From Acidimicrobiia bacterium (GTDB lineage Bacteria; Actinomycetota; Acidimicrobiia; Spongiisociales; JAHEDJ01): 64,000 nt of DNA. Where the stretch lies: assembly GCA_029210695.1 (NCBI GenBank), contig JARGFH010000013.1, positions 1 to 64,000 on the forward strand, given 5' to 3'. Shown here piece after piece: positions 9,573 through 10,436 of this stretch (position 1 is its first letter; each line of letters starts with the position of its first letter). The notes under the pieces are model-generated. The model was not told the DNA's origin. It ran no database searches and was given only the letters and a program-made list of their open reading frames with translations. The translations under genes and the position numbers were made by a program.

Positions 9573-9665
9573 GCCTGAGGTTCCGCGGTCGCTCCCAGGA
9601 AAGGATCAGCGGGGAAGTTCCGGTGCTGGATTCGTCCGGCCGCACACACTAGTTTCATCACCGTT

Positions 9666-10025
9666 ATGAAACGAAGAAGCCCGTTGATCTGTCGGTGGTG
9701 CGGGGAGGAGTTCCTCGACACACCCGGACCGGGTCGTCCTAGGCAGTATTGCCGGGCCAGTCACCGCCAGCGCGCCTACGAAGCCCGGCGGTTGGGAGAG
9801 AGTCGCCAGTTGCTGCCAGACGAGGTGATCGTGTCTCGCCGTGCATGGGATACGCTGCGCGACGCCCTGTACCGCCTCGAGTCCGCCGCAGAGGACGTCG
9901 CCATCGACCTCGAAACCGGAACGCCCACCAAAACGGATTATGTCAACGCACTCGCACACCTCAGCGAAGCGGTGCGACAACTCCAGGACGTGTCGGTCGA
10001 ACCCGTGGCCCTGGGCAGCGGCTGA
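9666..10025 (+). CDS. Small putative Zn-binding DNA-binding protein
   Basis: CRWCGEEF…GRPRQYCRASHRQRAYEARR followed by a helical C-terminal region. Confidence 0.75.
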   Translation: MKRRSPLICRWCGEEFLDTPGPGRPRQYCRASHRQRAYEARRLGESRQLLPDEVIVSRRAWDTLRDALYRLESAAEDVAIDLETGTPTKTDYVNALAHLSEAVRQLQDVSVEPVALGSG

Positions 10026-10189
10026 CGACCATCAATCCGTCACTGTGACGTAACCATCCCGACCTCCTGCTCCAGGGGATCGGGGACAACCGTGCGCCAG
10101 GATGGCGGGCATCGCGTTTCCCCGCCCAGGACCTTCGATCGACCTGTCCGAGCTGCGACCCGCAGGCAATGTCACGGCCGCGGCGTCGT

Positions 10190-10210
10190 TTTGCGTCACC
10201 GTGACGCAAA
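10190..10210. promoter_or_regulatory. Perfect 21-bp palindrome TTTGCGTCAC-c-GTGACGCAAA (related copies at 9652-9672 and 10038-10050)
   Basis: Seen directly in the sequence. Confidence 0.6.
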
Positions 10211-10408
10211 CCTCACGGGCCCGAGACACGACGCGATCAGAGCAGGATTCGGGCTCGATGCCGCCCGGGACGGCTGGGCGGCAGTCGCTGAGTCCTGCGA
10301 CCGTCTGGAACCCGGACCGTCTGCCTTCGGTTTGCCGAAAGGGAGAACCGCACAGGCAGTTCGGCCGGCCATCTGCATCGGGATCTATCAAACCGTGCGA
10401 CTTGACGT

Positions 10409-10436
10409 AGCGCCCATAATCATCGTTATGTAAAGT
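10409..10436 (+). other. dif: dif site (XerC/XerD chromosome dimer resolution site)
   Basis: AGCGCCCATAA-TCATCG-TTATGTAAAGT has the 11-6-11 layout and matches the canonical GGTGCGCATAA-TGTATA-TTATGTTAAAT. It is intergenic, between convergent genes. Confidence 0.85.

Follow-up and report, generated by a model that had tools for sequence, protein, structure and literature searches.

The 64-kb window analyzed here (contig JARGFH010000013.1, assembly GCA_029210695.1; coordinates below are positions in this window) carries, directly beside a chromosomal dif site, a small gene accompanied by three related palindromes. This arrangement raises the question of whether the encoded protein binds the palindromes and, if so, whether it acts at the replication terminus, regulates its own gene or is the remnant of an element integrated at dif.

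Architecture of the locus and its protein

The gene (9666..10025, plus strand) encodes a 119-aa SpdA-like protein, with a zinc finger and a helical hairpin predicted to dimerise, and is flanked by ctaG and an ABC-F ATPase gene. Site 1 (9652..9672), a degenerate sps-type palindrome with a single mismatch between its arms, spans the predicted transcription start and contains the ATG at 9666; the predicted -10 box (TANNNT; 9650..9655, plus strand) of a nearly leaderless promoter lies immediately 5' of this putative autorepression operator. Site 2 (10033..10055, core 10038-10050), an sps-type palindrome 3' of the stop codon, is positioned ~378 bp from the dif centre, and its 13-bp core is identical, letter for letter, to sps of plasmid pSVH1. 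Site 3 (10190..10210), a perfect sps-type palindrome, lies ~222 bp from the dif centre, and a second downstream site is found also in both other members of the genus. The dif site (10409..10436, plus strand), with an 11-6-11 layout, its XerC arm on the left and its XerD arm on the right, begins 198 bp after palindrome 3 and is the sole strong match in the genome (43.5 bits, against 13.4 for the next best in a whole-genome scan). All coordinates assigned to the palindromes, the ORF and dif in a preliminary description of this locus match the sequence.

The window contains exactly three copies of the core common to the palindromes, a pattern derived from these very sites, where shuffled sequence predicts 0.01. 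Scored across the genome with a half-site matrix trained on relatives, site 2 is the best and site 3 the second-best spacer-3 site, and site 1 comes eighth of nine sites above threshold. The genome's top sps-like site (G000:C107:22238-22259; spacer 2, 29.4 bits) lies outside the window and overlaps the 3' end of a parB-like gene ~11 kb from gyrA. Present in both genus relatives (G288, G294) and not found in seven other genomes scanned with the same pattern, it may reflect conserved C-terminal codons only, or an origin-proximal binding site.

GC skew is flat and uninformative across the window, and the terminus position was judged in its place from a polar motif, described below, and the position of gyrA. 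The G-rich heptamer switches polarity at the window dif, pointing inward 2:0 on the left and 8:1 on the right of this contig, and the dif match lies approximately opposite gyrA in nine near-complete relatives by coordinate comparison. The XerC arm of the window dif is directly adjoined by an inverted sequence resembling a XerD arm (10400-10410), found at this position in no other genome of a set of 73; extra XerD arms near dif, seen in 6/73 gene-positive and 2/34 gene-negative genomes, form no pattern. Two extra XerD-arm copies lie immediately 3' of dif at L100 (G074) and L138 (G162), one of these genomes being gene-positive and the other gene-negative. Elsewhere, the genome contains palindromic pentamer pairs of two related A/T-rich types, with ~60 copies each against 0.2 expected, which probably constitute a repeat family.

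The protein is composed of a zinc finger with ligands C9, C12, C29 and H33 and a GR motif, a basic helix (residues 31-46), a strand (53-56) and a helical hairpin (58-107). The motif series CxxC…GRP…CxxxH noted earlier is borne out by 96 homologues, across which C9, C12, G23, R24 and C29 are invariant and H33 is replaced by cysteine in many relatives. The basic helix and helical C-terminal region, also noted earlier, both appear in the AlphaFold2 monomer model, which comprises the zinc finger, basic helix, short strand and helical hairpin (pLDDT 93). The predicted homodimer scores 0.68, compared with 0.02 for the best of three controls, with contacts agreeing between runs by at least 90% and a pLDDT of 81; the mark applied to this score is reached by 20/30 solved homodimers and 1/23 monomers. 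The models support homodimerisation through the strand and hairpin, an arrangement that would leave both N-terminal domains free.

Searches of Pfam and NCBIfam returned no family match for the protein, a PDB sequence search nothing below E 0.2, and Foldseek, run with two models, no match at E 0.001. VIA-align retrieved only generic helical hairpins (best Z 8.9), a comparison that barely tests the N-terminal domain, and a protein atlas contained only actinobacterial clusters without names. No MatP chain is listed by the fold searches, although such lists do not exclude a MatP fold.

The closest described relative is SpdA2 of Streptomyces plasmids. Residues 8-46 align with the pIJ101 ORF at the spdA2 position (135 aa), with 23/39 identical residues and no alignment past residue 46, and in the SpdA family the N-terminus alone is conserved (PMC4170104). 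The two proteins therefore share the N-terminal zinc finger and basic helix, whereas the helical dimerisation domain, conserved in the chromosomal proteins, is not common to pIJ101 SpdA2. SpdA2 binds the 12-bp sps in EMSA, including the pSVH1 variant with a central T, and deletion of spdA2 or sps leads to 16-21% plasmid loss after three sporulation rounds, leaving transfer, ssDNA and copy number unaffected; transfer by the FtsK-like TraB is unimpaired upon SpdA2 loss (PMC4170104). The pIJ101 sps scores 29 bits with a matrix trained on chromosomal sites, and the pSVH1 and pEN2701 sites fall below its threshold owing to their flanks. The chromosomal and plasmid (pIJ101, pSVH1, pJV1) systems share the same palindrome, tolerance of spacer length included, and a site in or over the gene start. 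Binding of the palindromes by the window protein, as the preliminary description proposed, is very likely and a strong inference, given the co-occurrence of site and gene and the in vitro binding of this palindrome by the homologous SpdA2.

Autorepression, likewise proposed earlier, is likely from the anatomy of the promoter, as the site overlies the -10 box and start codon of a leaderless transcript. Among 67 promoter sites from relatives, 59 have TANNNT immediately 5' of the core and 64 enclose an ATG or GTG, the three members of the window's genus having GTT. At dif-proximal sites TANNNT occurs in 1/37 in each direction, indicating that these are not promoters.

Linkage of gene and site to dif

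With a single-protein query, the gene was found in 96 of 301 Acidimicrobiia genomes (relatives carry the class label of their sources), and 80 of the 96 were examined for dif. A dif match is present in 73 of these 80, on the same contig as the gene in 67 and on another contig in six. In all 67 same-contig cases dif is located at or after the 3' end of the gene, at a median of 288 bp and within 5 kb in 61, confirming the tie between gene and dif suggested earlier. The module faces the XerC arm in 54 of the 67 and the XerD arm in 13. The seven genomes without a dif match comprise three with a degenerate dif, two with a symmetric dif-like site and two with neither. At L182 (G262), the gene is present in two tandem copies beside a degenerate dif. 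A symmetric 11-6-11 dif-like palindrome occupies the usual place of dif at L185, L184/L213 and L179 (G182, G258, G150), as well as at L291, L297, L302, L303 and L305. XerC/XerD-type matches are weak in G182, G258 and G150, and in G258 a tyrosine recombinase gene adjoins the symmetric site. Such loci likely represent replacement of XerCD/dif by a single recombinase, with the gene and sps retained alongside.

The half-site approximates TGACG-N-AAT, with a lineage-specific spacer of 0-4 bp. The nearest site lies at most 600 bp from dif in 70 of the 73 genomes, the remaining three being without one. Where the gene starts more than 600 bp from dif, 34 of 37 genomes have a separate site, against 2 of 36 with a closer gene, and a site is kept near dif in 14 of 17 where the gene lies more than 1.5 kb away (1.5-40 kb). 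The spacer length of the dif-proximal site equals that of the promoter site in 34/34; as the genomes are related, all of these counts overstate independence. In some genomes, extra sites flank dif on both sides within a few kb.

Because the site matrix was trained on these same sites, three controls are important. In gene-negative genomes, the strict pattern is found at 0/36 dif loci, a few of whose dif matches are doubtful, and the matrix gives two weak hits at 34 loci, one of them dif itself; a single site occurs in 276 kb of such genomes. Three of these gene-negative genomes belong to a genus in which the fourth member carries both gene and sites. Among 65 held-out loci (left from 80 loci once 15 already seen had been dropped; dif present in 26 and always downstream of the gene), a separate site accompanies 17/18 displaced genes and 2/8 close genes.

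The linkage extends to a second family, read as Mycobacteriaceae from its rbpA-ppm1-lnt synteny and termed Mycobacteriaceae-like here, where 56 of 61 genomes have the gene. In a blind test, the third control, a site is located within ~600 bp of dif, on the XerC side, at 5/5 and then 23/30 loci matching the dif pattern, the two sets overlapping by two genomes; the other seven of the 30 are without a site near the dif match. The gene lies 0.76-140 kb from dif, usually tens of kb, and points to it in 21/23, the remaining two dif matches being ~2 Mb from the gene and probably not the chromosomal dif. In eight loci the gene has no palindrome upstream. Loci L047, L057 and L204, from mycobacteria-like genomes and a record of Tsukamurella, have the orthologue next to ppm1 and lnt and in divergent orientation to rbpA, which corresponds to the position of Rv2049c.

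The conserved feature is a site 200-600 bp from dif, which remains there wherever the gene has moved. A plain autoregulated transcription factor, whose proximity to dif is historical and whose downstream sites serve looping or a neighbouring transcript, would account for the operator that clearly covers the -10 box and the start codon in Acidimicrobiia, and a site after the stop codon could serve looping. This reading is quite improbable, since the downstream sites track dif with the gene 1.5-40 kb away in Acidimicrobiia and up to 140 kb away in the Mycobacteriaceae-like family, whose gene promoter has no palindrome in eight loci, and the downstream sites have neither a -10 box nor a conserved neighbouring gene. 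A conserved RNA or ORF between site and dif is not supported, the DNA there being conserved only among close kin.

The position of the site a few hundred base pairs from a Xer core, mostly on the XerC side, recalls the plasmid Xer accessory systems, cer with ArgR/PepA and psi with ArcA/PepA, and the persistence of the module at symmetric dif-like sites, where XerC/XerD matches are weak, could also fit an architectural accessory factor of the Xer synapse. Here, in contrast, the Xer core is chromosomal dif, the protein is dedicated and the spacing is loose; helical phasing between site and dif is unsupported (Rayleigh p 0.12 at 10.5 bp; 0.045 at 10.6, with five periods tried), either arm may be faced, and the intervening DNA is not conserved beyond close kin. 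We regard a synaptic role of this kind as unlikely.

The preliminary description had drawn an analogy to MatP, which organizes the terminus through matS, and had proposed a test for enrichment of such sites around dif. Exact-pattern sites lie mostly within 10 kb of dif and form no dispersed array. Scans of 25 genomes yielded 0-4 exact-pattern sites each: nine sites in five genomes, all within 9.5 kb of dif, in one set; ten in 4/5 genomes, three of them elsewhere, in the second; five in 4/5 genomes, all at the gene or dif, in the third; nine, eight of them at dif, in the fourth; and five, three of them the parB-end site, in the fifth. With a relaxed pattern, Mycobacteriaceae-like genomes contain up to seven sites each among the matches listed. 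The present genome holds 19 scattered occurrences of the 11-bp core, two of them in the window's contig, and eight sites in matS order, close to the 5.8 expected, with none in that contig. A MatP-like organizer of a terminus macrodomain, acting through many dispersed sites, would share with the present system a site-specific dimer with a helical C-terminus at the terminus, similar pentamer half-sites and, in some genomes, three or four sites within 10 kb of dif. It differs in showing no detectable homology or MatP family match, in the opposite order of its half-sites, in its dispersed array rather than 1-4 sites at dif, and in phylum, MatP-dependent organization being called unique to enterobacteria (PMC7174722). 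The MatP analogy did not hold, and such an organizer is very improbable here.

Distribution and inheritance bear on a further suggestion of the preliminary description, that the locus is what remains of an element integrated at dif, considered here as a plasmid or phage element with spdA/sps. In 401 genomes of the phylum, scored on the best 11 candidates per genome, strong matches are confined to Acidimicrobiia and the Mycobacteriaceae-like family (34/401, one with weak partial matches). The patchy distribution of the gene within Acidimicrobiia speaks for a relic, as do the Streptomyces plasmids and the five of six viral-collection contigs that carry both DNA-binding domain and site. Against it, the gene is single-copy in this genome, has a GC content of 64.7% compared with 63.0% for the genome, and is flanked by varied housekeeping genes, with one tyrosine recombinase in 44 neighbours scanned. 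A tree of 78 proteins, built from few columns and with many open forks, largely follows host families, with 19 changes compared with a minimum of 16 and 56.9 for shuffled labels. No second dif-like junction was found in this genome, and the site is kept near dif where the gene is up to 140 kb away. The chromosomal gene is single-copy and mostly vertically inherited, unlike its Streptomyces plasmid counterparts chromosomal and beside dif, with a site tied to dif and a polar motif. A present-day relic is largely refuted and highly improbable; the gene may have had a mobile origin in deep time. The locus does not show the traits of a dif-integrated element of the IMEX type, namely mobile genes, a second hybrid dif junction and a patchy, tree-incongruent distribution. 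Among the mobile sequences themselves, the six viral-collection contigs (L230-L235) carry the N-terminal domain only, five with sps-like sites and none with dif, and no dif-like site is present in nine spdA plasmid records scanned.

A polar motif beside the sites

The most skewed heptamer around dif, counted in DNA more than 1 kb from it, has 339 copies pointing towards dif and 18 pointing the other way in a pooled 735 kb of DNA of 73 gene-positive genomes. The same heptamer is skewed 13:0 in 30 Mycobacteriaceae-like loci and 128:15 in 15 gene-negative Acidimicrobiia. Both dif and the polar motif persist in genomes in which our queries detected no copy of the gene, so that many lineages can dispense with the module. 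KOPS are characterized by a skew of at least 90% and a high frequency in the dif region (PMC3384302), and the heptamer shows both, making it a candidate KOPS of Acidimicrobiia and the Mycobacteriaceae-like family. Our literature search found nothing relevant pairing this polar motif with FtsK.

Members of a set of thirteen polar 7-mers, defined by the same skew and later reduced by one non-G-rich member, also adjoin the palindromes. Within 8-48 bp of the core on the dif side, a range chosen after viewing the 37 dif-proximal sites of the discovery set, a polar 7-mer is present at 12 of these 37 sites and at 15 of 31 far promoter sites, against a background of 4.3%. It is rarest beside close promoter sites, where promoter site and dif-proximal site are one (4/36, p 0.07). 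None of these three sets contains a reversed motif, and the offsets cluster at 20-35 bp. Distal sites, including those on the far side of dif, carry the motif in 6/19, with none reversed and none on the outer side. The ORF-start control gives 35/639. Held-out sites have the motif on the dif side in 10/24 and 30/57, and Mycobacteriaceae-like sites in 6/26 against a 4.2% background. A single reversed motif occurs across the discovery, far-promoter, distal, held-out and Mycobacteriaceae-like sets combined. The motif adjoins only a quarter to half of the sites, and all of the counts are inflated by relatedness, although between genera the non-coding flanks cannot be aligned.

The tetrapeptide W-C-G-G is encoded with GGG GGA, codons that spell the motif, in 30/35 genes against an 8% background, a preference that points to selection on the DNA; the corresponding Gly-Glu codon test is not significant (5/18 against 19%). 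Of the window sites, 1 and 2 are each followed by a weaker member of this set. One polar G-rich 7-mer of the KOPS-like class (9702..9708, plus strand) lies within the coding sequence, 33 bp past site 1, and another (10073..10079, plus strand) lies 22 bp past site 2, both pointing to dif; in relatives they are oriented towards dif 174:52 and 67:14, respectively. Site 3 has neither a -10 box nor a polar 7-mer adjoining it in the window sequence.

Proposed role and implications

The protein probably assists the final step of chromosome segregation, as a helper not described before. More specifically, and with our confidence evenly balanced, we propose that the predicted homodimeric SpdA-family protein is an accessory factor of this step that positions FtsK beside dif. 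The dimer would bind the palindrome and repress its own gene, and an occupied site a few hundred base pairs from dif would be what matters for segregation. Should the polar motif serve these bacteria as KOPS, the sequence that orients FtsK, the bound dimer could load or hold FtsK on the motif, from which the pump would run the short way to dif and activate XerCD. The outcome would be resolution of chromosome dimers and possibly the unlinking of catenated chromosomes, in bacteria mostly without topoisomerase IV.

A loader is suggested by the polar motif, which faces dif and keeps a short, fixed spacing from the site. The FtsK motor ring assembles just upstream of KOPS, and the gap between site and motif falls there. 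To our knowledge, no sequence-specific helper protein acts beside KOPS; the present arrangement would resemble KOPS/SRS-directed FtsK loading in its G-rich motif, more than 90% skewed to dif in the dif region (PMC3384302), and differ in having a protein site beside a motif that is only a candidate KOPS. Most of the 80 Acidimicrobiia tested, this genome included, encode one type IIA topoisomerase A subunit, and this genome encodes one FtsK-gamma. With a single type IIA topoisomerase, unlinking by FtsK/Xer would matter more, but gene-positive and gene-negative genomes do not differ in their lack of topoisomerase IV.

The main rival, which we consider doubtful, is that the dimer acts near dif without loading FtsK. 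As a roadblock or anchor, it might instead pause replication forks, unload SMC or fix the dif region to the site of division. All of the linkage evidence fits it equally, and the loose site-dif distance (~200-580 bp), the occurrence of the site on the XerC or XerD side and the extra sites on both sides of dif in some genomes suit it as well. A small autoregulated gene at the terminus with a site in its own promoter is also a feature of the Tus/Ter and RTP/Ter fork traps, whose tus and rtp genes it recalls. The protein has no family match to these, however; its sites, fixed to dif, are symmetric and few, unlike polar Ter arrays, and a roadblock does not account for a dif-pointing polar motif that is confined to the dif side and keeps a short, constant spacing from the site.

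A broader version of the FtsK-positioning proposal, which we advance tentatively and hold to be less probable than the proposal itself, is that Acidimicrobiia and Mycobacteriales possess a dedicated FtsK loader at dif. An SpdA-like dimer on its palindrome, with an FtsK-orienting motif ~25 bp to its dif side, would there pass the translocase straight to XerCD and permit unlinking without topoisomerase IV or MatP, and Streptomyces plasmids would have borrowed its domain and site to ride the septal machinery.

SpdA homologues have been described as restricted to Streptomyces plasmids, and the main text of that report does not tie them to dif (PMC4170104). Our search of largely open-access literature turned up no report that connects SpdA-like proteins or sps with dif. 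The domain and site are known from plasmids, and the chromosomal, dif-linked role is undescribed in the literature searched. The present analysis adds the rule that the site remains at dif once the gene has moved, together with negative controls, the occurrence in the Mycobacteriaceae-like family, the persistence at symmetric dif-like sites and the coupled polar motif. A segregational-stability role shared with SpdA2/sps may offer a mechanism for the unexplained plasmid-stability phenotype of that system, and the polar motif provides a candidate KOPS for these bacteria. For Actinobacteria, which lack MatP, the locus would supply a concrete protein, site and polar motif through which the terminus may be handed over to FtsK and XerCD.
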